A stretch of DNA of 32,000 bases. Source: Candidatus Omnitrophota bacterium (GTDB lineage Bacteria > Omnitrophota > Gorgyraeia > Zapsychrales > JANLHA01). Numbering within the stretch: position 1 is the stretch's first letter; the number at the start of each line of letters is the position of its first letter. The translations under genes were made by a program, and so were the position numbers. Under the pieces are notes generated by a model. It ran no database searches and was not told where the DNA came from. It saw nothing but the letters and a program-made list of their open reading frames with translations. The stretch is from NCBI GenBank assembly GCA_963662715.1, contig OY759724.1, forward strand, positions 1,620,001 through 1,652,000, read 5' to 3'. This document shows positions 4,972-32,000 of this stretch, piece by piece.

Positions 4972-6267
4972 ATGATAGATCGTTATACTTTATCCAAAAT
5001 GGGTAATATCTGGACCGATGAACACAAATTTTCTATCATGCTTCAAATAGAGGTTCTGGCCTGTGAAGCACTTACAAAGTTAGGAGTCATTCCTAAGAAA
5101 TCGATGGAAAAAATCAAAAAAAATGCCAAGTTTGATATAGATGAGGTTCAGAGATTGGAAGAGAGAACCAAGCATGATATTGTCGCTTTCATTAATAATG
5201 TGGGACAGTATATCGGACCCGAAGCCAGATATTTACACATGGGATTAACTTCTTCGGATTTGCTGGACACATCGTTGTCCGTGCAATGTGTCGAAGCCAG
5301 CGATATCCTCATCAATGATTTGAAAAAACTTTTGGCCGCTTTGAAAATTAAAGCGAAGAAGTATAAAGACACTTTCTGTATTGCCAGAACGCATGGTGTC
5401 CACGCTGAACCGATTACGTTCGGGTTAAAACTTGCTGTGTGGTTTGATGAAACCAAAAGAAACATCGAACGTTTAGAACAGGCTCGCGAAATGATGCGTA
5501 TAGGAAAGTTGTCCGGCGCTGTCGGAACCTTTGCGAATATTGACCCGTTTGTTGAAGAATACGTTTGTGAAAAGTTAGGGCTTAAGCCGGCTAATATCGC
5601 TACCCAGATTATTCAGCGGGATGTCCACTGCCAGTTCGTAACCACCCTGGCCCTGATCGGGTCTTCTCTTAATAAATTTGCCACGGAAATCCGTCTTCTG
5701 CAGAAAACAGAAGTCCTGGAAGTGGAAGAGCCCTTCTTCAAAGGGCAGATCGGCTCATCGGCCATGCCGCATAAACGCAATCCCGTAACGTGTGAACGTA
5801 TTTCGGGGTTGTCCCGCATTCTCCGGGCTAACGCTCAGGCGGCCTTTGAAAATATCTGTCTCTGGCACGAGAGAGATATCAGCCATTCGTCCGTGGAGCG
5901 TATTATTTTGCCGGACAGCACGATTGCTTTGCATTACATGCTGCATAAGCTGATCCCCATTATTGATGGCTTGCTGGTTTATCCGAAACATATGATTGCC
6001 AGCCTTTCAAAAACGAAAGGGCTCATTTATTCTCAACGCGTATTATTGGAGCTTATGAAGAAAGGGCTGACCCGGGAAGACGCTTATGAAATTATTCAGC
6101 ACTGCGCGATGCAGGTCTGGAAGGAAACCTCTGATTTTAAGGATGTGTTATACCGGGACAGGAAAGTCAGAAAACATTTAAACACGGCGGAAATTGATGC
6201 TTGTTTTGATATTAAATACTACGCCCGGCACCGCGATATGATTTATAAACGAGTGGGATTAAAATAA
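4972..6267 (+). CDS. purB: Adenylosuccinate lyase
   Basis: Fumarate-lyase signature GSSAMPHKRNP, the typical PurB N-terminus (RYTLSKMGNIWTDEHKF), and a length of 431 aa. Confidence 0.93.
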   Translation: MIDRYTLSKMGNIWTDEHKFSIMLQIEVLACEALTKLGVIPKKSMEKIKKNAKFDIDEVQRLEERTKHDIVAFINNVGQYIGPEARYLHMGLTSSDLLDTSLSVQCVEASDILINDLKKLLAALKIKAKKYKDTFCIARTHGVHAEPITFGLKLAVWFDETKRNIERLEQAREMMRIGKLSGAVGTFANIDPFVEEYVCEKLGLKPANIATQIIQRDVHCQFVTTLALIGSSLNKFATEIRLLQKTEVLEVEEPFFKGQIGSSAMPHKRNPVTCERISGLSRILRANAQAAFENICLWHERDISHSSVERIILPDSTIALHYMLHKLIPIIDGLLVYPKHMIASLSKTKGLIYSQRVLLELMKKGLTREDAYEIIQHCAMQVWKETSDFKDVLYRDRKVRKHLNTAEIDACFDIKYYARHRDMIYKRVGLK

Positions 6268-20832: not shown

Positions 20833-20943
20833 ATGGGAGAACAAAGCGCCCCCGGATTATCGAATGCGGTAGGAGGGCTTATCACCGTTGCGATTGTCGT
20901 GATTTTGTATGTTCTGATCCGCATTCTTCAGAAGAAGACCTGA
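20833..20943 (+). CDS. Candidate 36-aa single-pass membrane peptide (not in the ORF track)
   Basis: The ATG lies 2 nt after the upstream stop. Translation is MGEQSAPGLSNAVGGLITVAIVVILYVLIRILQKKT, one clean TM helix with a basic C-terminus. A terminator hairpin follows directly. No conservation evidence is available. Confidence 0.35.
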   Translation: MGEQSAPGLSNAVGGLITVAIVVILYVLIRILQKKT

Positions 20944-20949
20944 CGGAAA

Positions 20950-20980
20950 ACAGTGAAGTTCTGCTTCACTGTCTTTCTGC
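20950..20980 (+). terminator. Rho-independent terminator candidate ending the long + strand gene string
   Basis: Perfect 9-bp stem ACAGTGAAG / CTTCACTGT with a 5-nt loop (20950-20972), followed by CTTTCT. A 400-nt non-coding gap lies downstream. Confidence 0.55.
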
Positions 20981-21185
20981 CGGTTCCTCCCTGGCCTCGT
21001 TTTTATTTTAAGGAAGGACACTGCTTTATCCTGCCAGAATATCCCGTGAAAATATTGAATAAAAACTAGCGTAAGGCCCACCTGAGGTTATAATTATTTT
21101 GAGTCGTTTATAGTGCTGGAGTTTATGTCTCATTTTTGTTTTGGCGGCAACTCCGCGGCAGAATGTCGCGCCCGTTTAGTGCGTG

Positions 21186-21221
21186 CCGGAGAAACGAGAA
21201 AGCGCTTTCTTGTTGCTCCGG
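21186..21221. repeat. 36-nt imperfect palindrome / strong hairpin in the leader of the surface-protein genes
   Basis: CCGGAGAAACGAGAAAGC|GCTTTCTTGTTGCTCCGG pairs at 15 of 16 stem positions (one G-U, one A/G mismatch) around a GCGC centre. A T-rich stretch (CATTCTTTTGG) begins 4 nt downstream. Confidence 0.7.
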
Positions 21222-21415
21222 GAGGCATTCTTTTGGAAAAAAGAGGGTATGGTTCCTTGCAGCTTTAAGTTTCTCGTCGATGCGTGTCAAGGAAGCGGGA
21301 AGAGAAGGCGTTTGAAAGATGGAATAAGGTAAGAAAAGTATTGTATACTTTTTATAGTAGGGCCTGACCACGATTTAATTATCGGGAACAAACTAACCGA
21401 GCAGGTAGGAGAATA

Positions 21416-22279
21416 ATGATGAAACACAAAAGAAAACTGTTTGCTGTTTTTGCGGGGGCCGTTTGTTGTCTGTTTCTTGCGGGCATGGTCTATGCCGGAA
21501 CATTAACTTTAACGACATATTATCCCGCTCCTTTTGGTTCTTATTCCCAGGTGCGATTAGTGCCGCGGGCCGCCATATCAGGAGCCTGTGATGTGGGGAG
21601 TATGTACGTTGATGAAACAAACGGGTTATTAATGTATTGCCGTGATGATTCGACCTATGGCCTGTTGCCGACAGCCTGGACGCAGGACAGCAATTCTGTT
21701 TTCTTAACAGATGTGGCCAATTACAGCACTTTAAAAGTCGGGATCGGGACCATAAACCCTGACAGCCAGCTGCAGATCGAATCCCAGGGAAGCGGCGCCA
21801 CGTTTAAAGTCGATCAGATGGGAGGGAGCGCTTTTACCGTAAACAGCCAGTTAAGCAACTCGGTGATAGGAACGGAGGGGAACACGTCCCTGGAATTGAA
21901 GACAAATGGCACGTCCCGCATATACATTACATCAGCAGGCAAGGTGGGTATCAATTCCGCCAGCCCGACGCATGATTTGGAAATTAACGGGGATGTGGAA
22001 ATTTCCGTTGAGGCCGGGGAGGACAGCCAGGTTACTTTTTCAAGGGGTACGACCTTTGTGACGATGGGGCTCGATGCCGCAGATAATTATTTTAAGATAA
22101 ATTACGGGTCCTCTTTGGGAGCCACGACAGAGCTGACATTGCTCCCGAGCGGTAAATTGCGCATTAACGGACCTATTGAAGTCAAACTCGGAAGTGATCC
22201 TGTTGGAGAAATAAAATTACGATATATTGATACGGGCGATCCCAACACATCGGGATATTATGCCATGTACGCCCCTTAA
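21416..22279 (+). CDS. Secreted tail-fibre-like protein, family unassigned
   Basis: AGGAG lies 5 nt upstream. Sec signal peptide (KLFAVFAGAVCCLFLAGMVYA|GT). The mature N-terminus is TLTLTTYYPAPFGSY, followed by a two-Cys loop CDVGSMYVDETNGLLMYC. There are two copies of the motif KVGIGTINPDSQLQI / KVGINSASPTHDLEI. The protein is Gly/Ser/Thr-rich and looks beta-rich. Confidence 0.8.
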   Translation: MMKHKRKLFAVFAGAVCCLFLAGMVYAGTLTLTTYYPAPFGSYSQVRLVPRAAISGACDVGSMYVDETNGLLMYCRDDSTYGLLPTAWTQDSNSVFLTDVANYSTLKVGIGTINPDSQLQIESQGSGATFKVDQMGGSAFTVNSQLSNSVIGTEGNTSLELKTNGTSRIYITSAGKVGINSASPTHDLEINGDVEISVEAGEDSQVTFSRGTTFVTMGLDAADNYFKINYGSSLGATTELTLLPSGKLRINGPIEVKLGSDPVGEIKLRYIDTGDPNTSGYYAMYAP

Positions 22280-22310
22280 TCAACACGTTTAACAGGGAGA
22301 TGAGAGAGAT

Positions 22311-25300
22311 ATGCTAAGTTACAGAAAGATTTGGCGTTTTTGCGCGATGGTTGTCTGTACGGTGTTTTTGGTCCTTCTGTCTGAATACGGCGCGTTTTCT
22401 CAAACTTGGACAGATGATGATCTGGCGACCGCCCAAAGACCGGTCAAGCCTATTCATATCCGGGAAATGCGGCGGGCTATTTATAACAAACGCATGCTCT
22501 GCGGGATGTCTTCTCCGACATGGCAGGAACCCAATATCATTGAAAAAGTGACGCCTATCCGGGCTCAGCATGTTGAAGAATTGCGGCAGGCGATCAGAGA
22601 TGTTTATGACATGCCGCCGTCCCGTACTCTCCCTGACGGTGTGATATTGGCGACGGATGTCCCGGAGGAATCAGCTATCAGGGCCGATCATATTTTTGAA
22701 ATAAGACTCTCTATCGAAGAGGTCAGTTGCTGCGGGGACGGGGAATGCAACCCGCCGTTTGAAGACCTGGATAACTGCCCGGTGGATTGCGGGGCCTGCA
22801 CCTATAGCGACTGGGTGATTTTGGGTTGTGGCGTGTCTCCTTGCGATGGCAATGAAATTCAGCGCAAAAAAACGGCTCCGGAAGACGGCTGTCAGGATCT
22901 GATCGAATGTATTGCGGCTTATGACACATGCTGCAACTACGGGGCGTGGGAAGATTATGACTGCGGCGGAGGCGAATGCGACCCGACAGCGATGAGGCAG
23001 ATTCAGCAATCAGCCACCAGTGTGGCGGGCTGCGAGGACCGTTACCGCTGCCTGGAGCTTGAATCCTGCTGTGATTATGCGGGTTTTGTCTGGCAGTGCG
23101 GCTATGATATCCTTTATCCGGATACACAATGGCTGGAGGTTAACATCCCTGATAATTCCGCGTGTGAGCCAGAGTTCGGGACGATTTATGAAGCGGATGA
23201 TCCCATATCAAAAGCAAACTGCTGCGATTACGGGGCGCAAAGCAGCAGCTGCGGCGGGGAAGTCGAAGGCGTGACCTATCCCGACTCCACCCTTATAACG
23301 CAACGCGCGGCGGGCAATCCCAATTGTGAAGATGATATCACCATCACTCCCAATGCCGATGATTGTTGTGACTACGGACCGATTGAGACGCCTCCCAGCT
23401 GTGGGGCGACATTAAGGGTGGATGGAGTCATGACGACGTTCCCTGACACGACGTTCCTGCAGTTCCGGACACCGACAAATCCTAACTGTGATCATAAAAT
23501 TGTCCAGGAACTCGCTATTGAAGAGGATCCGACAAAATACTGCTGTCAATACAGCGGTTTTCAGGGAGATTGCGGTTATGATCCCGTATACCCGGATACG
23601 GACTGGATCGAATATAATATCGCGGGAGTTGTCGACGTATCCTGTCCTGTGGAATACAGAAATCATCTGCCGAATGCCGACAGCTGCTGCTGTTACGAAT
23701 CGACCTCTATATGCGGAGACGGGGTCACCTACCCCACGTCCAGCATGATCACGTCGAAAACTCCGACGTGTAATCCTTCCTGCTCGACCGAGGTAACAGA
23801 GGATACTTTTAATGAAGCCTGTTGCGGTTACGGGCCTTGGCAGTATGATCAGTGCGGATATGCCGGATATTATGACGATACTTATCTGGTGGATTACCGT
23901 TCTCCGACCAATCCTCTGTGTGATCCTATCTTCGGTGATGTCTGCGGCCCGAATCATGAAGACTGTTGCGGTTACCCGGAAAAAGATGTTGTCTGCGGAG
24001 GAACCTGGGAAGGGGTGGTTTATCCGGAGACCACCTGTATTTATGATGCCGCTAAACCGGCCAACCCGAATTGCCCGGATAAATGCGGTTCTATTGAAGA
24101 GATGTGCGATTATTGCTGTGATTATGAAATTACGAGTTCCCACTGCGGGGACGGGGTGACGATCCCGGTCACCACTCAGGTTGTCACCAGGACGCCCAAT
24201 AACCCGAACTGTGACGTGATCGTGGACGAACAGATCCCGGATGGCTGTTGCGGTTATCCGGCAGGGTCGAGCCGGATTTGCGGATACGACGGGCGCCCGG
24301 CAACGACATCCGTTGAAGTCATGGAACCGACCCAGGACTTTGATGATTGCGAAACGATTATACAGAATGAAATAGAGAACGATCCGTTCTGTTGTGATTA
24401 TGCCGGGTTCCAGGCCTCGCAATGCGGGTATTCGGGGTGGTATGAGGCGCACACCCGGTTAGAGGTGAATGAGCCTAACAACGCCATAACAGGCTGTGAT
24501 CCTCTGTTTCAGAACGTTGTTCCCTATGAGTATGAGTGCTGTGAATACGGGACCGCAACGTCGACCTGCGGGGACGGGGTAAGTTATCCGACGAGTTCCT
24601 GGGTGACGACGCAAACATCCGCCGCGGGGTGCGATGCTATCGAGGGAGAGGAGACGAATCATCAAAACTGCTGCAATTATCCGGCCTCCCCGACCACGGA
24701 ATGCGGGGCCTTGGGATATCCCGAGACTTATTTGGTTTCGTACCTGGAATCATCAACGAATCCGACGTGTGAAATTCAGATTATCGGAACACCGGCTTAT
24801 GACGAAGTGTGTTGCCAGTACGGATCTTTGCAGCAGGGGTGCGGGGACGGGGTCCAGTTCCCGTTGACAGACTATGTCAGCTGGCATGAGCCGGGGCTCG
24901 TGCACGTTGATTGCCCGGTTAAAGTTATCAGCCAGATCGAAAATGACGACACGTGTTGTGGGTATCCGGCGGAGTATACAGCCGTTTGTGGATATTCAGC
25001 CTTAGGCTATCCGGAAACAACATTAGTGGAGATTAAAGAGCCGACGCTGGCGGAATGTCCGGTGAAATCACGGAATCCGGTCCCTTATGACGACACATGC
25101 TGTGAATATACGACAAATTATTATTGCGGGTATCCGTCTCCTTTGGACATCCCGGACACCAATTATGTTGAAGTGAAAGAACCGGGAGGAGGAAAAAGTT
25201 GCCCGGTAGAGGCTGTGAATGAAACAGCGTATGCTGAAATATGCTGCGGATACACGACCGGAACCGTTCAGGATTTGGGCTGCATGGCCTCATATGACGG

Positions 25301-26111
25301 TCTAACCTGTTCGTACGATCAACGATTGATTGTGACCACTCCGACGAACGCGAATTGTCCTGAAGAAAAAGAATGTAATTATGATGTGTCCTGTACAACA
25401 TGTACGACCGGAGACACCCTGGCCTGCGCTGACGTAAACGGCTGTCCCTACCAGCGTATCTGCGAAGACGGTTACTGGAGCAGCTGTCAGCAGGTTAATC
25501 CTCTTTGCACTCCGGGAGAGATTGTTGATTGTGAGCCCAATGCCGACGGGTTTATTTCCAAAAAGACCTGTAATGTCTGCGGGACAGCCTGGGGACCCTG
25601 CTGGTGTGACCCGCAGGAAACACAAAGCTGTACAACCTCCGCTTCCTGCCCCGGGATCGGCACATGTTCCGGAGGAGGCTGGTCTCCTTGCGAGCAAAGC
25701 AACCCGACATGTATTCCCGGCTCGACCCATGACTGTACTTTGGGCGACGGAAACCCGGGGGTCGAAGATTGTAATTCCTGCGGAGACGGCTTTGGTACGT
25801 GCCGCTGCTTGGCCGGCGCGGTTTATTGTTATATCGAAGGGGTTCTGGGAACCCAGACATGTAATACGACGACGGGGTTGTATGAGGATTGTGTCTGTAT
25901 CAGCGGATCAACCAAGCAATGTACCACGACTTCGGGATGTACGGCCGGGGTTATTTATTGTAACGACGGCACCGGGCTCTTTGACGGCGACTGTGAATTG
26001 CCGTATTCTGAATGTACTCCGGGAGAAACCAGGTCTTGTCTGAAATACTTTATCATCCCTGGGACGGAGACATGTATGTCCTGCGGGAACTGGAGTGGTG
26101 TGTGTGAGTAA
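22311..26111 (+). CDS. Giant secreted cysteine-rich repeat protein (1266 aa, about 126 Cys), no recognised family
   Basis: Uninterrupted 3.8-kb ORF beginning 31 nt after the previous gene. Signal peptide CAMVVCTVFLVLLSEYGAFS|QT. The architecture has three parts: a triplicated helical motif, about 17 four-Cys repeats, and a C-terminal Cys-knot-like module. Confidence 0.9.
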   Translation: MLSYRKIWRFCAMVVCTVFLVLLSEYGAFSQTWTDDDLATAQRPVKPIHIREMRRAIYNKRMLCGMSSPTWQEPNIIEKVTPIRAQHVEELRQAIRDVYDMPPSRTLPDGVILATDVPEESAIRADHIFEIRLSIEEVSCCGDGECNPPFEDLDNCPVDCGACTYSDWVILGCGVSPCDGNEIQRKKTAPEDGCQDLIECIAAYDTCCNYGAWEDYDCGGGECDPTAMRQIQQSATSVAGCEDRYRCLELESCCDYAGFVWQCGYDILYPDTQWLEVNIPDNSACEPEFGTIYEADDPISKANCCDYGAQSSSCGGEVEGVTYPDSTLITQRAAGNPNCEDDITITPNADDCCDYGPIETPPSCGATLRVDGVMTTFPDTTFLQFRTPTNPNCDHKIVQELAIEEDPTKYCCQYSGFQGDCGYDPVYPDTDWIEYNIAGVVDVSCPVEYRNHLPNADSCCCYESTSICGDGVTYPTSSMITSKTPTCNPSCSTEVTEDTFNEACCGYGPWQYDQCGYAGYYDDTYLVDYRSPTNPLCDPIFGDVCGPNHEDCCGYPEKDVVCGGTWEGVVYPETTCIYDAAKPANPNCPDKCGSIEEMCDYCCDYEITSSHCGDGVTIPVTTQVVTRTPNNPNCDVIVDEQIPDGCCGYPAGSSRICGYDGRPATTSVEVMEPTQDFDDCETIIQNEIENDPFCCDYAGFQASQCGYSGWYEAHTRLEVNEPNNAITGCDPLFQNVVPYEYECCEYGTATSTCGDGVSYPTSSWVTTQTSAAGCDAIEGEETNHQNCCNYPASPTTECGALGYPETYLVSYLESSTNPTCEIQIIGTPAYDEVCCQYGSLQQGCGDGVQFPLTDYVSWHEPGLVHVDCPVKVISQIENDDTCCGYPAEYTAVCGYSALGYPETTLVEIKEPTLAECPVKSRNPVPYDDTCCEYTTNYYCGYPSPLDIPDTNYVEVKEPGGGKSCPVEAVNETAYAEICCGYTTGTVQDLGCMASYDGLTCSYDQRLIVTTPTNANCPEEKECNYDVSCTTCTTGDTLACADVNGCPYQRICEDGYWSSCQQVNPLCTPGEIVDCEPNADGFISKKTCNVCGTAWGPCWCDPQETQSCTTSASCPGIGTCSGGGWSPCEQSNPTCIPGSTHDCTLGDGNPGVEDCNSCGDGFGTCRCLAGAVYCYIEGVLGTQTCNTTTGLYEDCVCISGSTKQCTTTSGCTAGVIYCNDGTGLFDGDCELPYSECTPGETRSCLKYFIIPGTETCMSCGNWSGVCE
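22929..25391 (+). repeat. Coding tandem repeat array, about 17 units of ~48 aa (~144 nt)
   Basis: CC dipeptides occur at residues 207, 253, 304, 352, 411, 459, 504, 552, 602, 646, 694, 743, 787, 834, 882, 930 and 978. Each is followed by x-Y, then CG 6-10 residues later, then usually a Y/F-P-D/E/T-T/S turn, then a fourth Cys (often NPxC). Confidence 0.85.
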
Positions 26112-26147
26112 CGCAGGTTAAAGAGAAGTTCTACATAAATAAACAAA

Positions 26148-26171
26148 AAGTCGGCGAATCCTGGCTGACTT
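26148..26171. terminator. Hairpin after the giant gene; the U-tract is on the minus-strand side only
   Basis: 8-bp stem AAGTCGGC / GCTGACTT (one G-U) with an 8-nt loop. On the + strand it is preceded by AAACAAAAA and followed by CGTGTGTCT. Confidence 0.3.
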
Positions 26172-26210
26172 CGTGTGTCTCCCTGTAATTTTCAGGTGGA
26201 TTAGGTTGAC

Positions 26211-26828
26211 GTGTCTCAAGAACCAGAATCCCAGCTAAATCAGATTTATTCGGATCCGGATGTTTTGCTTATGCTTGAGGTCCAGAAAGGCCACCAGGCC
26301 CCTTTTGAGAGCCTGATGCGTAAGTATTATAAACGGATTTATAATTTTATTTACCGTTTTGTCGGACATCGACAGCTGGCCGAAGATTTGACACAGGATG
26401 TTTTTATCCGTGTGTATAAATCGGCGGATTCTTACCATCCCAAAGCAAAATTTCAAACCTGGATTTATACTATTGCTAAGAATTTGAGTCTTAATGAATT
26501 AAGAAAAAAGAGCTCTCGAAACAGTATTTCTTTAGAACAAGAAATTCCGACTTCCCGTGGGGCCGTGCTGCCCCAGGTCGAAGACCCTCGTGCGAAGAGT
26601 CTCTGGGAATCCATGGCGCAGGAAGAAAAACAGTCTGTTGTCAGGGAGGCCATTCAGAGTCTTCCTGAGAATCAGAGGATGGCTGTTATTTTGCGGAGAT
26701 ACGAAGATCTTTCTTACGAACAGATTGCTCAGACACTCCAATGTTCCGTGCCTGCCGTTAAGTCTCTTTTGAATCGGGCTAAAGAAGGGCTGAAAGGGAA
26801 GCTCAGGAATGTTATGGGAGATTATTGA
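26211..26828 (+). CDS. ECF-type RNA polymerase sigma-70 factor
   Basis: Region 2 (AEDLTQDVFIRVY, FQTWIYTIAKNLSLN) and region 4 (LPENQRMAVILRRYEDLSYEQIAQTLQCSVPAVKSLLNRA). GTG start with AGGTGGA upstream. Confidence 0.88.
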   Translation: MSQEPESQLNQIYSDPDVLLMLEVQKGHQAPFESLMRKYYKRIYNFIYRFVGHRQLAEDLTQDVFIRVYKSADSYHPKAKFQTWIYTIAKNLSLNELRKKSSRNSISLEQEIPTSRGAVLPQVEDPRAKSLWESMAQEEKQSVVREAIQSLPENQRMAVILRRYEDLSYEQIAQTLQCSVPAVKSLLNRAKEGLKGKLRNVMGDY

Positions 26829-26894
26829 CGCGAGACAAATAAATCGCAACTTTTCCGCTTTTTTTGTGTTAAATATATAGAAGAGGATTTTATT

Positions 26895-27383
26895 ATGAAA
26901 TGTCATGAAATCAAAGAACTTCTCCCGGCCTACAGCAATTCTGATGTCTCTCCAGAAAAAGCTATGGAAATAGGAGAGCATTTAAAGGTCTGCGAGGATT
27001 GCCTGCAGGAATATAATCTTATTGTTAAGAGCTGGGAGTCTTTGGACGTCTGGCCGGATATTGAGCCGGAAGAAGGATATGTTTCAAGGTTCTGGACGCG
27101 TTTGTCTGCAGAACAGACCTGGAGAGAACGGGTTATGAGCGGAATGAAGAACCTGCTTGCAAAAAGAGCTCTTGTCCCGGCCTATGCCGGAACGCTCGTT
27201 GCGGTCCTTGTTGCTTTCTTGTATTTTCAGGTCCCTTTATCAAAAAACCGGCCTCCTGAAATGATCATTGAAGAGGATGTCGATTTTGTTGAATCTCTGG
27301 AATTGACAGAGCAAATGGATATATTGCAGGAGATGGATTGGTTAGAGGATTTGGATGTTATCGAAAAACTTGATGCTGTTTAA
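26895..27383 (+). CDS. Anti-sigma factor, zf-HC2 type, single-pass membrane protein
   Basis: N-terminal H-x3-C-x2-C (HLKVCEDC) after MKCHEIKELL, one TM helix (LVPAYAGTLVAVLVAFLYF), and a short, very acidic exported tail. Confidence 0.8.
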   Translation: MKCHEIKELLPAYSNSDVSPEKAMEIGEHLKVCEDCLQEYNLIVKSWESLDVWPDIEPEEGYVSRFWTRLSAEQTWRERVMSGMKNLLAKRALVPAYAGTLVAVLVAFLYFQVPLSKNRPPEMIIEEDVDFVESLELTEQMDILQEMDWLEDLDVIEKLDAV

Positions 27384-27663
27384 TCAGCAAAACAATTTTG
27401 TGCTAAAAGGAAGGGCTATTTTTGTGCTGAGCCTCTGTGCTTTTATCTTTATGGGGGGCCGGAATGGAGATTGCGGGAAAGAACAACAGAAGGATTCTTT
27501 GAAAAAGAAAACACAAGATGAGTCTGTTGTCGAATATATGGATATTTTAGATATATTGGAAATTCTGGATGAGCGGGACATTGATTTCTTTCAGGATGAT
27601 TTTTTTAGTTATCAGGAATTCGAGGGAGAGAAGGATGGAAAGGACAAAACAAAAAAGAAGTAG
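27373..27663 (+). CDS. Small exported acidic protein (96 aa), hypothetical
   Basis: The ATG overlaps the anti-sigma stop (ATGCTGTTTAA). It has a hydrophobic N-terminus (AIFVLSLCAFIFMGG) and an acidic core, EYMDILDILEILDERDIDFFQDDFF. The 3' end overlaps the next gene by 29 nt. Confidence 0.5.
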   Translation: MLFNQQNNFVLKGRAIFVLSLCAFIFMGGRNGDCGKEQQKDSLKKKTQDESVVEYMDILDILEILDERDIDFFQDDFFSYQEFEGEKDGKDKTKKK

Positions 27664-28192
27664 GTGTTTTTCGTGTGTTTTGTTTGTAATTCTGATTTGT
27701 TTTATCGGGCGTCCGGCGGCTGCTCAAACAACCGGGCAGGCCCGTGAAATCCGTGACGAAAAACGGTTGTCGGAAAAATTCGAAAGGTGGCAACAGCTCA
27801 GCGAAAAAGAGAAAGCCCTGTTGCGCCGGCGTTTTGAAAAATGGCAGGCGATGTCCCCTGCGCGGAAAGCAAGAATTCAGGAAAGGTTTAAACGGTTTAA
27901 ATCCCTGCCTATAGAGAAACAGCAGGAGCTTCGGAAGAACTGGCGGCGCTTTATGAACATGACCGAGGGGCAGAAAAGAGAAATCAATGCGCGTTATGCC
28001 CGATGGAAGAAAATGACTCCGGAAGAACGCAGAAGACTAAGAAACCGGTTTTACCGGTTTATGCAGATGTCCCCGGAGGAACGCAGGCAGCTGCAGCAAA
28101 AAAGAGAGCGGTGGCAGTCTCTTTCTCCGGAAGAACGGCAGAGAATACGTCAAAGAATACTTGAAAAAAGAAGACAGGCCCAGGAAATGTAA
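27635..28192 (+). CDS. DUF3106-like exported basic repeat protein
   Basis: The ATG at 27635 follows GGGAGAGAAGG. Signal peptide CFSCVLFVILICFIGRPAAA|Q. There are seven consecutive 18-aa repeats of the type F-x-R-W-x-x-M-S-P-E-E-R-x-x-L-R-x-R. The DUF3106 naming is from memory of the family's (R/K)(W/F)xxLxPEER pattern. Confidence 0.7.
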   Translation: MERTKQKRSRCFSCVLFVILICFIGRPAAAQTTGQAREIRDEKRLSEKFERWQQLSEKEKALLRRRFEKWQAMSPARKARIQERFKRFKSLPIEKQQELRKNWRRFMNMTEGQKREINARYARWKKMTPEERRRLRNRFYRFMQMSPEERRQLQQKRERWQSLSPEERQRIRQRILEKRRQAQEM

Positions 28193-28199
28193 TCATCTT

Positions 28200-28262
28200 A
28201 AGGGATCAGCGCCCTTTTTTATAACTCAAATAGAACCAGGACGCTGATCCCTTTCATTTTTC
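28200..28262 (+). terminator. Terminator region after the ECF module
   Basis: AAGGG-atcagcg-CCCTT followed by TTTTA (28200-28221). In addition, AAGGGATCAGCG (28200-28211) is the exact inverted repeat of CGCTGATCCCTT (28242-28253), which is followed by TCATTTTTC. Confidence 0.5.
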
Positions 28263-28395
28263 TGAATTGTCGGCCTTTTTATTGTACCCTCCTTTTTAAA
28301 TATCATCTTCCAATAATTTACAGCTTTTTAAAAATCCAAATAAGTTCTGGCCTCTTGTTGTCGTTCAGTTTTTTTCGCCCTCTTTTTCTTGCCTC

Positions 28396-28434
28396 TTGAC
28401 AATGGTGTATTACTGTATTACACTTGTAATACAG
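28396..28434 (+). promoter_or_regulatory. Sigma-70 promoter TTGACA-17 nt-TACACT overlapped by a three-half-site operator
   Basis: TTGACA at 28396-28401 and TACACT at 28419-28424. TGTATTAC occurs twice in tandem (28406-28421), then ACTT, then the inverted copy GTAATACA (28426-28433). Together these form the 10-bp inverted repeat CTGTATTACA-ct-TGTAATACAG across the -10 box and the start site. Confidence 0.65.
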
Positions 28435-28463
28435 GTAGCATCAAAACAAGAGTAAAGAAAGCC

Positions 28464-28868
28464 ATGACAGCCAAAGCAAAATTTTATTTTAATATTTTAA
28501 CAACTTCCGGAGTCCCGATCTACCGGCAGATCATTGATCAGGTGAAAACTCTTATTGCGGCCGGCCGGTTGTCGTCAGGGGAGTTCCTGCCTTCTGTTCG
28601 TCAGGTGGCGCAGGAGCTGGAAATAAATCCTATGACGGTTTCCAAAGCCTATTCTTTATTAGAGAAGGAAGGAGTTCTGGAGTTTGCCCGCGGGCAGGGC
28701 ATGAGAGTGAAGGGAAAAACTATTCCTCAAAAAGATCTGAAACAGCGGGAAGAGGCGCTTATTCCTTTATTAAAAGAGGTCATTATGCGGGCTTGTCAAT
28801 TGTCCGTTCAGCCGGAAAAGGTTATCTTACTTATGGAACATTTGTGGAAGGAGCAGCGTCATGAATAA
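28464..28868 (+). CDS. GntR-family transcriptional regulator, short YtrA-like subtype
   Basis: Winged-helix block PIYRQIIDQVKTLIAAGRLSSGEFLPSVRQVAQELEINPMTVSKAYSLLEKEG with only a short C-terminal helical tail. The ATG at 28464 is preferred, because the track start at 28389 would lie upstream of the promoter. Confidence 0.85.
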   Translation: MTAKAKFYFNILTTSGVPIYRQIIDQVKTLIAAGRLSSGEFLPSVRQVAQELEINPMTVSKAYSLLEKEGVLEFARGQGMRVKGKTIPQKDLKQREEALIPLLKEVIMRACQLSVQPEKVILLMEHLWKEQRHE

Positions 28869-29739
28869 TTTTGTGATAAACATGCAGGGCGTTACAAGGC
28901 GTTATCGATCTAAAACGGTTTTGCAAAATTTGTCTTTGCGCGTTCCCGAAGGGTCGGTGTTTGGCCTGTTGGGGAAAAACGGGGCGGGGAAGACGACCCT
29001 CATTAAATGTGTTTTGGGTTTATTGCATCCTCATGAGGGCCAGATTTCGGTCCTGGAAGATCATCCCGGGGATTTCTCGAATCAAACTAAAGAAAAGATC
29101 GGCTATGTCCCTCAGTCAGACCGGATTTATCCCTGGTTAAATGTCAGGCAGCTTGTTGCTTATACGGCTTCGTTTTATTTTCACTGGAATACAGGTTTGG
29201 TTGAACGGTTGCTGAAAGAGTGGGAGTTGGATGAAGAGGATAAAGTGGGTTTGCTGTCAGAAGGCCAGGCCCAAAAACTGGCCATCATCCTTGCCTTAGG
29301 ACATGAGCCGAGTGTATTGATATTTGACGAACCCGTTGCCAGCCTGGATCCTGCCGCCCGCAGGAATTTCTTAAAGACCATTCTGGATATTGTCGCTGAC
29401 CGGAAATGCACGATATTTTTCTCCACCCATATCACCTCAGACCTTGAACGGGTCGCCGACCGTGTCGCTTTGCTGAAAGACGGAAAAATTGATTTTTGCG
29501 GTGAGCTTGACGTGTTAAAAGAAGAAGTCAAAAGACTGCGGGTGGTGTCTTCTGTCCCGTTGTCCCGGGAATTCCAGCTTGACGGCCTTCTTCACTGTGA
29601 ACTGTCAAAGTATGAGGCTATTTTGTCTGTGCGCGGCTTTCATCCGGATCTGAAAAACCAGATAGAGAAAAAAATCGGAGCGAAAATAGAAGTCGAGGAT
29701 CTGAATCTTGAAGAAATTTTTCTGGAGCTCCATTCATGA
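28861..29739 (+). CDS. ABC transporter ATP-binding protein
   Basis: Walker A GKNGAGKTT, signature LSEGQAQKL, Walker B VLIFDEP, and the H-loop STHI. 8-nt overlap with the GntR gene. Confidence 0.92.
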   Translation: MNNFVINMQGVTRRYRSKTVLQNLSLRVPEGSVFGLLGKNGAGKTTLIKCVLGLLHPHEGQISVLEDHPGDFSNQTKEKIGYVPQSDRIYPWLNVRQLVAYTASFYFHWNTGLVERLLKEWELDEEDKVGLLSEGQAQKLAIILALGHEPSVLIFDEPVASLDPAARRNFLKTILDIVADRKCTIFFSTHITSDLERVADRVALLKDGKIDFCGELDVLKEEVKRLRVVSSVPLSREFQLDGLLHCELSKYEAILSVRGFHPDLKNQIEKKIGAKIEVEDLNLEEIFLELHS

Positions 29740-31124
29740 GAAATAAATATTATCAGATTTTCAACCTTTATTATCAATACATCCCTTTCCGTATCTTGTC
29801 GGCGTGTTTAGTGGCCACAGCTTTGCTTTCAAGATTTTCCCTTAAGCAGAAATACTATTATGTCGCCGATGATTTTTTCACCTTTTTTCTGGTTGTCAGT
29901 GTCTGGCTGGGTTTCACTTCCGGGGTGTTATTAAAGAGACAGATGGCGCATCCCCGGGCCGCACTGCTGCCGGATTACCGTATCCCCCATATCATTGTCC
30001 CTTATAGTTTTTTTGCCTTCTTTATCGCGGTTTACTGTTATTGGCTCAGCAGCCTTTACCCGCTTATTATCCTGGAGAAAGCAGCTGTGTGGTCGGTTTT
30101 TCTGTTAAGTGTTCTTATCATCAACCTGATTATCTGGGTCGGATATCTGTCCATTAGTTTGCTGGTCTATGTCTCGTATTTTCTTCTGCTCGTGATTTCC
30201 TGGCAGACGTTTAACCTGGTTATCCTCATTACCGAACAGGCGCATTGGCAGCTTGCCCTGGCTCTGGCGAGTGTGGCTTTGCTTCTGCTGCTCGCTTGGC
30301 GAATGACGGTCTTAAATGAGGACAAGTTTGAATACGGCTATATTATTTCCTGGCCGCATAAGGAATTCCTCCACAATCAAATCAAAGCCGGAGAACTTTA
30401 TGTCCGGGCGATACATTTTATTAAAAGCCGGCTCGGGCTTAAGCCCCGCAGAGTTGCCGTTCCTCCTTATCCGAGAGAGGCGGCCCTTTGGCGGAGGGCG
30501 TACCATTGGCATTATTTGGATTTGGCTGAATTGAAAAGTATTTGGATTCTGCTTGTGGTTTTGACGCCGGTCTATGTTTACCGCATCCCTGGGATGTCTT
30601 TTTTTCATGACTTTTACAGGGATCCTTACAGTAATTTTTTGCTTTATGCCATTGCCCCTGTCCTGATCGTTTTATGCTCGAATTATCGTAACATGAGCAC
30701 CTGGCCGCATGATCTTCTGAAACCGGTCCGAAAAAAAGACTTTATTAAAGAGCAGGGGGCGGGACTTTTGGCGGGGCTGGGGCTGTACTGGCTGTTGTTT
30801 GTGATGTACTTGGTCTTTATCCCGCATTGCGTGCTTCAACCCGCTGCCTTGTTGAGCAGCCGGTTCTGGGGATATTTGGCTTTGTCAGGAAGTTTTGCCT
30901 TCTTGACATTGTCCTGGGTCATTTTTATGAGCACTTATTCATCCCGGCCCTGGTTTGTCCTGGCTAACGGAAGCGTTCTTGTGGGGCTGGCGCAGTTGTT
31001 GTTTGTGGTGGCCGGGAAACAGCCTTTCATGATCAATATGTTGAATAGTGCTCTGTGTTGGGTAGGCATTTATTTATTTTTGAAATGGGGTTACCGGAAA
31101 TGGTGTCAGGCTGAGACAGCCTAG
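29736..31124 (+). CDS. Polytopic membrane protein (462 aa), family unassigned; presumed partner of the ABC ATPase
   Basis: ATGA overlap with the ATPase gene. About 10-12 hydrophobic helices are split by a ~70-aa basic/aromatic loop (SWPHKEFLHNQIKAGELYVRAIHF...WRRAYHWHY). Confidence 0.7.
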   Translation: MRNKYYQIFNLYYQYIPFRILSACLVATALLSRFSLKQKYYYVADDFFTFFLVVSVWLGFTSGVLLKRQMAHPRAALLPDYRIPHIIVPYSFFAFFIAVYCYWLSSLYPLIILEKAAVWSVFLLSVLIINLIIWVGYLSISLLVYVSYFLLLVISWQTFNLVILITEQAHWQLALALASVALLLLLAWRMTVLNEDKFEYGYIISWPHKEFLHNQIKAGELYVRAIHFIKSRLGLKPRRVAVPPYPREAALWRRAYHWHYLDLAELKSIWILLVVLTPVYVYRIPGMSFFHDFYRDPYSNFLLYAIAPVLIVLCSNYRNMSTWPHDLLKPVRKKDFIKEQGAGLLAGLGLYWLLFVMYLVFIPHCVLQPAALLSSRFWGYLALSGSFAFLTLSWVIFMSTYSSRPWFVLANGSVLVGLAQLLFVVAGKQPFMINMLNSALCWVGIYLFLKWGYRKWCQAETA

Positions 31125-31135
31125 GAGGGTTTGAT

Positions 31136-32000
31136 ATGAAAGTCAAAATGATTTTACCCGCGTTGTCTGAAGCCAAGAGTATATACTGGCGGCCTTTGAA
31201 ATATTCTTTGTTCCCGCCTTTGGGTTTAGCGACTTTAGCCGGTTTTCTTTCCGCTGAGGATGATATCGAAATCCGGGATGAACATGTTGAAGATTTATTC
31301 CTGGATGACGATCCTGACCTCGTTGCGATCCAGGTTTATATTACAGCCGCCCACCGGGCTTATGAAATAGCCGATCATTACTGCCGGAAAGGCGTTTACG
31401 TTGTTTTAGGCGGTTTACACGTAACCTCTCTGCCGCAGGAAGCCGCTCTTCATGCCGACACGATTTTTTTAGGTCCGGGCGAAGATACCTGGCCGCAATT
31501 TTTGCATGATTTTAGGCATGCGCGTCCCCGCAAAATTTACTCATCAACCCATCGTTCCCTGACCGGCATCCCGCCTTTGCGGCGGGATCTTATTAAACGG
31601 CATTTGTATCTGGTGCCTAATTCTTTGCTTGTGTCCCGGGGCTGCCCGCACAGATGTGATTTTTGTTATAAAGAATCTTTTTTCCAGGGGGGCAGATCTT
31701 TTTATACCCAGACGGTCGATGATGCGCTTCATGAGATCCGCCGTCTCCCGGGGAAGCATCTTTTTTTTCTTGATGACCATCTCTTCGCTGATGAACGCTT
31801 TGCCTTGTCGTTGTTTGACGGAATGAAAGGAATGAAACGGGTCTGGCAGGCTGCCGGGACAGTGGCTTCCGTATTAAGGCCTCGTTTAATTGAGAAAGCC
31901 GTTGATTGCGGATTGAAAAGCCTGTTTGTCGGGTTTGAAAGCGTTAGGTCGGATACCCTCGCGGCATACAATAAACAGCATAACAGCAGAAGCGATTATG
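31136..32000 (+). CDS. B12-binding-domain radical SAM protein (class B), 3' end outside window
   Basis: Absent from the ORF track because it has no stop in the window. AGGAGGG lies 6 nt before the ATG at 31136, and I translated 288 codons without a stop. The N-terminal Rossmann-like B12 domain shows LGLATLAGFL, LVAIQVY and VVLGGLHVT. The radical SAM cluster motif is SRGCPHRCDFCYK (CxxxCxxC). Confidence 0.85.
   Translation, partial: MKVKMILPALSEAKSIYWRPLKYSLFPPLGLATLAGFLSAEDDIEIRDEHVEDLFLDDDPDLVAIQVYITAAHRAYEIADHYCRKGVYVVLGGLHVTSLPQEAALHADTIFLGPGEDTWPQFLHDFRHARPRKIYSSTHRSLTGIPPLRRDLIKRHLYLVPNSLLVSRGCPHRCDFCYKESFFQGGRSFYTQTVDDALHEIRRLPGKHLFFLDDHLFADERFALSLFDGMKGMKRVWQAAGTVASVLRPRLIEKAVDCGLKSLFVGFESVRSDTLAAYNKQHNSRSDY

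Follow-up and report, generated by a model that had tools for sequence, protein, structure and literature searches.

A 32,000-nucleotide stretch of DNA from a Candidatus Omnitrophota bacterium (contig OY759724.1, positions 1,620,001 to 1,652,000; hereafter the window) carries six co-directional genes between its positions 20950 and 28262, which a sequence-only reading had joined into one self-contained module of surface fibre and envelope signalling. We find that these genes form two independent, separable units. Unit A (21416-26111) consists of a gene whose product resembles tail fibres in sequence and a gene for a giant Cys-rich protein, and we lean towards the view that it is an Omnitrophota two-gene cassette for a two-part secreted surface fibre used in contact. 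Unit B (26211-28192), which begins with an extracytoplasmic function (ECF) sigma factor gene, is a stand-alone envelope-signalling cassette that is recurrent and itself uncharacterised. All window features given below with coordinates lie on the + strand, and the signal peptides and transmembrane (TM) helices of window proteins were judged by eye only.

The fibre gene (21416..22279) encodes a 287-aa protein with a signal peptide (aa 1-26), an N-terminal module (N-module, aa 27-95), beta-helix repeats (aa 95-220) and a C-terminal beta domain. The protein has no Pfam or NCBIfam match. Its residues 95-220 match the PHROG tail-fibre families phrog_9942 (E 2.9e-10) and phrog_18345 (E 2.5e-8) and, in a phmmer search of the PDB, the trimeric beta-helix of the Bdellovibrio fibre structures 8OND (E 4.2e-5, in three stretches) and 8OJN (E 1.4e-3). 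These matches bear out the earlier description of the gene 1 product as tail-fibre-like. The N-module reads TLTTYYPAPFGxY..RLVP, is invariant and contains two conserved Cys, and the C-terminal domain ends in GEIKLRYID..SGYYAMYAP-COOH. In an alignment of 12 fibre homologues, two ends are invariant, namely a mature N-terminus (T/S)LTLTTYYPAPFGxY..RLVP with two conserved Cys and an extreme C-terminus GE(I/L)K(L/V)...(G/A/C)YYAxYAP-COOH, referred to here as the YAxYAP tail.

The second gene of unit A (22311-26111) encodes a secreted, acidic protein (pI 4.1) of 1266 aa, 126 of which (10%) are Cys. Its 5' part (22311..22727) specifies a signal peptide (aa 1-30) and an N-terminal domain (N-domain) of three (I/V)RxxH(I/L)xELRxA(I/V) repeats, abbreviated HxxELR (aa 31-139). 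This is followed by a CCGDGxC...NCPxDC module and a degenerate Cys-rich spacer (22728..22928, aa 140-206), conserved in all homologues and partners, then by 17 tandem repeats of ~48 aa with four invariant Cys each (22929..25397, aa 207-1029), and finally by a Cys-rich region of alternating CxxxxGCPGxxxCxxGxWxxC and CxPGxxxxC...CxxCGxxWGxCxC modules (25398..26111, aa 1030-1266), in which there is no TM helix and no known sorting signal. The repeats follow the consensus CC-x-Y-x6-CG-x5-(Y/F)PxT-x10-P-x3-C, and each of the 17 scores 37-59 bits against the repeat hidden Markov model (HMM); the repeat alignment comprises 21 non-overlapping three-repeat blocks. All homologues share one plan, in which a signal peptide, a mature N-terminus (Q)TWTD, three HxxELR repeats and the CCGDGxC..NCPxDC module are followed by 8-20 CC-x-Y repeats and by alternating Cys-rich modules at the C-terminus.

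A search of 5.8 billion clustered proteins turned up no more than six relatives of this giant protein, and an exhaustive HMMER search with the repeat profile recovered 19 proteins among 1.84 billion representatives. The strong matches are Omnitrophota homologues, and the weak ones, which are also the only matches outside the Omnitrophota, are Bacteroidota proteins of the type IX secretion system (T9SS; E 2e-26 to 2e-7). No match to the giant protein was found in Pfam, NCBIfam or PHROG, to its sub-regions in Pfam at E<=1, or to its repeat and N-domain in sequence and profile searches of the PDB. Both structural genes encode secreted proteins of no named family, as had been proposed. The ~45-aa repeats of the Bacteroidota T9SS (CHU_C) proteins have a similar period and share a G(V/I)TY(P/T)x(T/S) core with those of the window; they differ (GC[DN]S..NG[IV]TYTxS) in having two Cys rather than four, no CC-x-Y start, no HxxELR N-domain and another secretion signal. 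Three of these Bacteroidota-type CHU_C proteins (P0038, P0039 and P0044) contain dozens of ~45-aa GC(D/N)S...NG(I/V)TYTxS repeats, for which Pfam has no model.

For a three-repeat block (aa 834-977), AlphaFold (AF2) returned a confident model (predicted local distance difference test, pLDDT, 93.9; predicted template modelling score, pTM, 0.74), with three beta strands and a short turn in each repeat. Foldseek searches with this model gave no significant match, the best being at E 0.14 in the PDB (template modelling score below 0.2) and at E 0.04 in BFVD. The four invariant Cys of each repeat, together with the confident, rigid model, suggest that the repeats form a stiff, disulfide-stapled rod. 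In distant Omnitrophota loci, a gene with a DsbA/thioredoxin fold lies four genes from the pair (L002 16731-17597, and likewise in L003-L005); it could have a role in oxidising a 110-Cys protein, or its position could be a coincidence.

Fibre and partner genes go together. An HMM of the giant protein's N-terminal domain was run against all six-frame open reading frames (ORFs) of every locus collected, after de-duplication and with a distance limit of 3 kb. An N-domain ORF was present near every fibre with a YAxYAP tail (16/16) and near none of the fibres with other C-termini (0/46). The partner usually lies immediately downstream of the YAP-tailed fibre, and once it is convergent. Partner length varies from 152 aa (L084, essentially the N-domain alone) through 421 aa up to 1432 aa, and the three repeats are kept in 11 of 11 aligned partners. 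Judged from these alignments, the conserved element of the partner is the three-repeat N-domain and not the rod. Two further loci display other arrangements of the same components. In L072 (1832-3430), a single protein joins a fibre module, by way of a poly-Pro linker, to a Cys-rich C-terminal region (CGDGFC...), and this fusion may be a Rosetta stone that ties fibres to Cys-rich partners. In L120 (7799-16155), two complete fibre and partner pairs (260+727 aa and 303+1342 aa) stand in tandem, and a gene for a Toluene_X-type outer-membrane protein comes next.

The fibre of the window belongs to a wider family defined by its N-terminal end. The TYYPAPFGxY N-module is common to proteins with differing C-termini, among them Peptidase_S74, Peptidase_G2 and various Cys-rich tips; the relatives P0016, P0020 and P0021, for example, end in Peptidase_S74. 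A metagenome scan found 278 stretches that encode fibre relatives, and the fibre-family proteins of the 79 loci retained are 130-625 aa long and are often encoded by 3-4 paralogues arrayed in tandem. A homologue search with the N-module profile returned only nine short fragments and missed known members. Every named member of the family is an Omnitrophota hypothetical protein. This is a mosaic family whose tips can be exchanged on a constant N-terminal part, an organisation like that of the mosaic adhesive trimer (MAT) family of Bdellovibrio bacteriovorus. Because the N-module is common to so large a family, in which the C-terminal tips are many and diverse, it is most likely, by analogy with phage fibres and MATs, a cell-proximal anchor. 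In L056, L109, L103 and L105, tandem arrays hold 3-4 fibre-module paralogues whose C-terminal tips differ, which suggests a diversified repertoire. Another tip class, in fibres that have no Cys-rich partner (L046, L053, L068, L071, L111 and others), is marked by a recurrent C-terminal motif of its own, (P)xxGQ(M/I/F)W(L/V)(C/R)TD....

Our reading of unit A draws on observed gene content, computed domain similarities, the separability of the units, a tail and a partner that always occur together, the way in which the repeats are arranged and the confident repeat model. From these we infer how the two proteins might work together, including the trimeric state of the fibre, the docking, the orientation, the disulfides, the placement at the cell surface and the function. 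The fibre protein is probably a trimer, by analogy with phage tail fibres and MAT fibres, and would then present three YAxYAP tails, while its monomeric partner would present three HxxELR repeats. In the proposed mechanism, a joint would form where the trimer's three tails dock on the partner's three repeats. In this genome the partner would continue into a stiff rod, built from 17 three-stranded beta repeats that are stapled by disulfides, and end in a Cys-rich knob, and the whole assembly would be a long surface appendage that contacts other cells or surfaces. By the same analogy, the constant N-module would be cell-proximal and the C-terminus distal. In view of the way of life attributed to Omnitrophota (PMC10066038), host or prey contact is the most plausible function.

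Several points weigh against this reading. The AlphaFold model of the full fibre protein is mediocre (pLDDT 66), and its top Foldseek matches, which are again 8OND and 8OJN, are weak (E 0.05-0.12). We identified no outer-membrane export route or anchor for the pair. The association of tail and partner has a Fisher p of 3.7e-15 that ignores shared ancestry, being calculated with no phylogenetic correction, and the co-occurrence itself could come from co-secretion, chaperoning or co-regulation rather than from binding. Finally, the giant and sigma genes have no terminator between them here, and in this one genome the two units may be co-transcribed and functionally coupled.

The closest described counterparts of the fibre are the MAT fibres of B. 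bacteriovorus, including Bd2133 and Bd3182, whose structures are 8OND and 8OJN (PMC10769870). In both cases the proteins are secreted and contain tail-fibre-like beta-helix repeats (VGIGTxxPxxxLxV), a likeness detectable at the sequence level (E 4e-5). Both families combine an invariant N-terminal part with variable C-terminal tips, some of them Peptidase_S74, and have many paralogues per genome, and in both the lifestyle of the host organism is, or for Omnitrophota is suspected to be, predatory or host-dependent. The window protein differs in its length (287 aa versus ~1000 aa), in its phylum (Omnitrophota) and in its YAxYAP tip, which is strictly paired with a separate Cys-rich gene, a pairing not described for MATs. 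The comparison rests on C-terminal MAT fragments, the only ones in the PDB. What is new here, among tail-fibre-like bacterial adhesin fibres, is the fibre cassette with its two genes, along with the broader family that shares the N-module. A more specific proposal, which we put forward only tentatively, is that Omnitrophota possess a modular fibre system for host or prey recognition analogous to the MAT fibres, with interchangeable tips on one invariant anchor module, in which a plug-and-socket adaptor between trimer and monomer, formed by the three YAxYAP tails and the pseudo-threefold N-domain, would extend the fibre with a rod of a new disulfide-stapled 48-residue beta repeat.

An alternative is that the pair contributes to the structure or chemistry of the envelope, for example as an S-layer-like coat or matrix, or as a thiol-rich binder of metals or minerals held on the cell by the fibre-like protein. 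The very high Cys content of the acidic giant protein fits this interpretation, as do the frequent location of the pair among housekeeping genes and the lack of any recognised adhesin domain. However, the fixed pattern of four invariant Cys and the confident beta fold are typical of structural disulfides, not of free thiols. A 10-fold range of partner lengths around a conserved N-domain fits a modular appendage better than a lattice, and the swappable fibre tips include S74 chaperone tips as in receptor-binding fibres. We therefore consider an envelope component unlikely, and continue to favour a two-part contact fibre.

The sequence-only reading had gone further and treated all six genes as one accessory module, in which an envelope signal reaches the ECF sigma factor by way of the anti-sigma, acidic and DUF3106 proteins, and the sigma factor in turn activates the fibre and giant genes. 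Much of its description holds. The + strand between 20950 and 28262 does carry six co-directional ORFs, at the coordinates it had listed, between two terminator-like hairpins (z -4.3 and -5.8). The gene kinds it named (a Cys-rich repeat protein, an ECF sigma factor, and zf-HC2, acidic and DUF3106 proteins) are as described, the sigma, zf-HC2 and DUF3106 proteins passing curated cut-offs, and every non-sigma product has a signal peptide or a TM helix. At the left bound, a hairpin pair with a U-run (20945..20995; dG -22.4, z -4.27) forms a terminator-like end of the upstream NUDIX/37-aa ORF unit; none of 200 shuffles was equally stable, and a hairpin scan matched at 20979-20995. At the right bound, a long hairpin followed by a U-rich stretch (28200..28253; dG -26.4, z -5.79) forms a terminator-like end of the ECF unit. 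These strong bounds, the shared gene direction, the exported or membrane character of all non-sigma products and the giant-sigma interval, where the structure is not significant (z -1.7 versus shuffles) and a U-run is absent, all speak for a single module.

Comparison with related genomes speaks against it. In the closest relatives, which are 73-79% identical and have the same flanks, the fibre gene and a gene of ~1270 aa are followed directly by the GntR-ABC genes. The best example is L006 (a 3.35 Mb contig, ~78% identical), where the order is PolyA_pol, NUDIX, 37-aa ORF, 286-aa, 1270-aa, GntR, ABC and 462-aa, with no ECF genes. By blastn, window positions 21487-26111 and 28385-31983 align with L006, and in place of the 2.27 kb between them (26112-28384) L006 has 353 bp and L001 has 127 bp; L041 likewise lacks the ECF set. 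Between the conserved flanks of these three loci the pair is present and the ECF block is missing, and the six genes do not stay together as one block. Both L006 and L001 have a strong hairpin directly after the giant stop codon. The ECF cassette adjoins the fibre pair only in the genome of the window, where it stands in place of the giant gene's own terminator, and any read-through from the giant gene into the sigma gene would be a lineage-specific accident of position. We saw no target duplication or mobile-element feature at the junctions of the ECF block.

The pair also occurs in other surroundings. It lies between pyrR/pyrB/pyrC and glmS in L002-L005, after rpoD and next to RNaseH in L121, and as tandem pairs in L120. 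No ECF set was found beside the pair in these contexts, at least five in number, or in any of ~16 distinct pair loci. In a single locus, L009 (15428-20843), the pair is downstream of ExbB/ExbD and immediately upstream of a PilM-...-secretin-T2SSE cluster of a kind related to type IV pili or type II secretion systems.

The converse holds for the ECF set. A sigma-factor scan of 185,579 species genomes yielded 30 loci, nine of which have sigma factor, anti-sigma factor and DUF3106 genes in the same order (in Omnitrophota, "Planctomycetales", Desulfobacterales and other metagenome-assembled genomes, MAGs). None of these nine contains a fibre or giant gene, including four loci with 10-16 kb flanks. 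The proposed linkage of the Cys-rich gene to the ECF/DUF3106 set thus fails from both sides, with the pair occurring apart from the ECF set in all of ~16 distinct loci and no ECF locus with flanks of at least 10 kb containing the pair. In addition, the sigma gene is downstream of the structural genes and not upstream, and the upstream regions of the sigma and fibre genes share no motif, only an 11-nt chance match; the sigma-upstream regions of other ECF loci were too divergent for a motif to be derived. The candidate control blocks upstream of the fibre gene are kept in L006, which has no ECF genes. As a conserved system, the self-contained, ECF-controlled six-gene module is largely refuted, and we regard it as improbable. 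The proposal of an undescribed cell-surface system survives as a reasonable reading of the fibre pair, and not as a six-gene signalling organelle.

The two candidate control blocks lie in the spacer ahead of the fibre gene. A conserved TATAATTATTTTG block (21089..21101), ~325 nt upstream of the fibre start and a candidate -10 region, is invariant between the window and L006, and the rest of the spacer is poorly conserved; we consider it a candidate promoter element of the fibre gene. The 20-nt block TATTGTATACTTTTTATAGT (21339..21358), 58 nt upstream of the fibre start, is a candidate promoter or operator and is perfectly conserved between the window and L006, a locus with no adjacent ECF set. 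If the TATAAT block at 21089 is a promoter, the fibre mRNA would have a leader of ~320 nt (21102-21415) containing TATTGTATACTTTTTATAGT. An Rfam scan of the whole window gave zero matches; this long conserved leader is therefore not a known RNA element.

Unit B is a four-gene unit that starts with the ECF sigma factor gene (26211..26828). The product, a sigma-70 factor of group 4, contains sigma-2 and sigma-4 regions only (Sigma70_r2, 72.7 bits, E 2e-20; r4_2, 63.2 bits, E 2e-17) and scores 117.5 bits against TIGR02937 (cut-off 42.9), and no equivalog-level NCBIfam model reached its cut-off. Directly downstream lies the gene for a zf-HC2 anti-sigma factor (26895..27383; PF13490, 29.9 bits versus a cut-off of 22.2) with an HLKVCEDC motif (H-x3-C-x2-C, aa 29-36), one TM helix (~aa 93-113) and a periplasmic part that consists only of a ~50-aa acidic C-terminal tail, MDILQEMDWLEDLDVIEKLD. 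The third gene (27355..27663) encodes a small exported acidic protein of 102 aa that belongs to no Pfam or NCBIfam family and whose motif MDILDILEILDERDIDFF resembles the anti-sigma tail. The fourth encodes a DUF3106 protein (ORF 27569-28192; PF11304, 89.7 bits versus 24.3, E 2e-25) with a signal peptide, a pI of 11.5 and repeated W-x2-(L/M)(S/T)PEE(R/K) motifs, whose real start is probably M23 at 27635.

Seven of the nine loci with the ordered set (L011, L012 and L014-L018) also encode a 67-95 aa equivalent of the small acidic protein. One acidic motif, (D/E)-L-(D/E)-hydrophobic, recurs in the anti-sigma tail and in the small exported protein (there LEFLExLEFLEE-like), and it is kept together with a basic DUF3106 protein in seven loci. 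Since the anti-sigma tail and the small protein are acidic and the DUF3106 protein is strongly basic, we speculate that these partners bind by charge in the periplasm. The cassette resembles pairs of an ECF sigma factor and a class I anti-sigma factor such as RpoE-RseA and SigW-RsiW in its two-domain sigma factor and in the zf-HC2 anti-sigma factor directly downstream, with H-x3-C-x2-C and one TM helix. It differs in that the periplasmic part of the anti-sigma factor is a short acidic tail and in that two further products always belong to the unit, one exported and acidic, the other a basic DUF3106 protein. The set follows a gene for a Cys/Met pyridoxal phosphate (PLP) enzyme in L011-L016, and in L014 it precedes CBS, TPR-SPOR, MiaA and HflX genes. 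In a distant MAG (L032), a homologue (41%) of the NUDIX/Macro protein of the window is encoded at 5082-5936, ~2 kb upstream of an ECF/anti-sigma/DUF3106 set that has no fibre pair. We found nothing relevant in the literature searched on DUF3106 together with ECF sigma factors or on this four-gene unit.

Similarity to phage tail fibres with a Peptidase_S74 (PF13884) chaperone lies in the central beta-helix, which matches PHROG families, and in the S74 domains of relatives. The window protein differs from such fibres in having no S74 domain (no Pfam match), a Sec signal peptide and a cellular, syntenic locus. That the pair is a prophage or tailocin remnant, with a tail fibre gene and an accessory gene, is extremely unlikely, and we rejected this origin on the viral-contig search and the genomic contexts: the PHROG tail-fibre matches and the phage tail proteins that are the weak best BFVD matches of the repeat model favour it, but Sec signal peptides are present on both proteins, neither the window nor any of ~16 pair contexts contains another phage gene, no relative was found among 2.9 M viral contigs (IMG/VR), and the position is syntenic among related genomes. 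With Sec-type signal peptides on both proteins, no relatives in viral contigs and named members that are all Omnitrophota, the system is cellular.

The flanks are of the kinds that had been described, with housekeeping genes on the left (CCA/polyA polymerase and NUDIX) and a regulator and transporter on the right (GntR and an ATP-binding cassette, ABC, ATPase). Directly after the NUDIX gene lies a small ORF (20833-20944) for MGEQSAPGLSNAVGGLITVAIVVILYVLIRILQKKT, a product of 36 aa with one TM helix. A 37-aa gene is called at the equivalent position in L006, so the ORF probably encodes a genuine small membrane protein. The promoter of the GntR gene is near-consensus (28396-28440; TTGACA-17-TACACT) and overlaps repeated GTATTAC / GTAATAC half-sites. 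This whole block is conserved in L006 and L001 and is probably an autoregulated operator.

Omnitrophota are widespread. These bacteria are uncultivated and ultra-small, with a suspected host-dependent or predatory lifestyle, and the molecules proposed for their contacts have been limited to pili and poorly conserved giant ORFs (PMC10066038). The analysis presented here defines a family of secreted proteins, found across the phylum, that resemble tail fibres and have swappable tips. This fibre family and its paired Cys-rich partner are concrete candidates for host recognition in the Omnitrophota, and a simple sequence rule, in which a YAxYAP tail goes with a domain of three HxxELR repeats, links fibre and partner and is testable without cultivating the organism.

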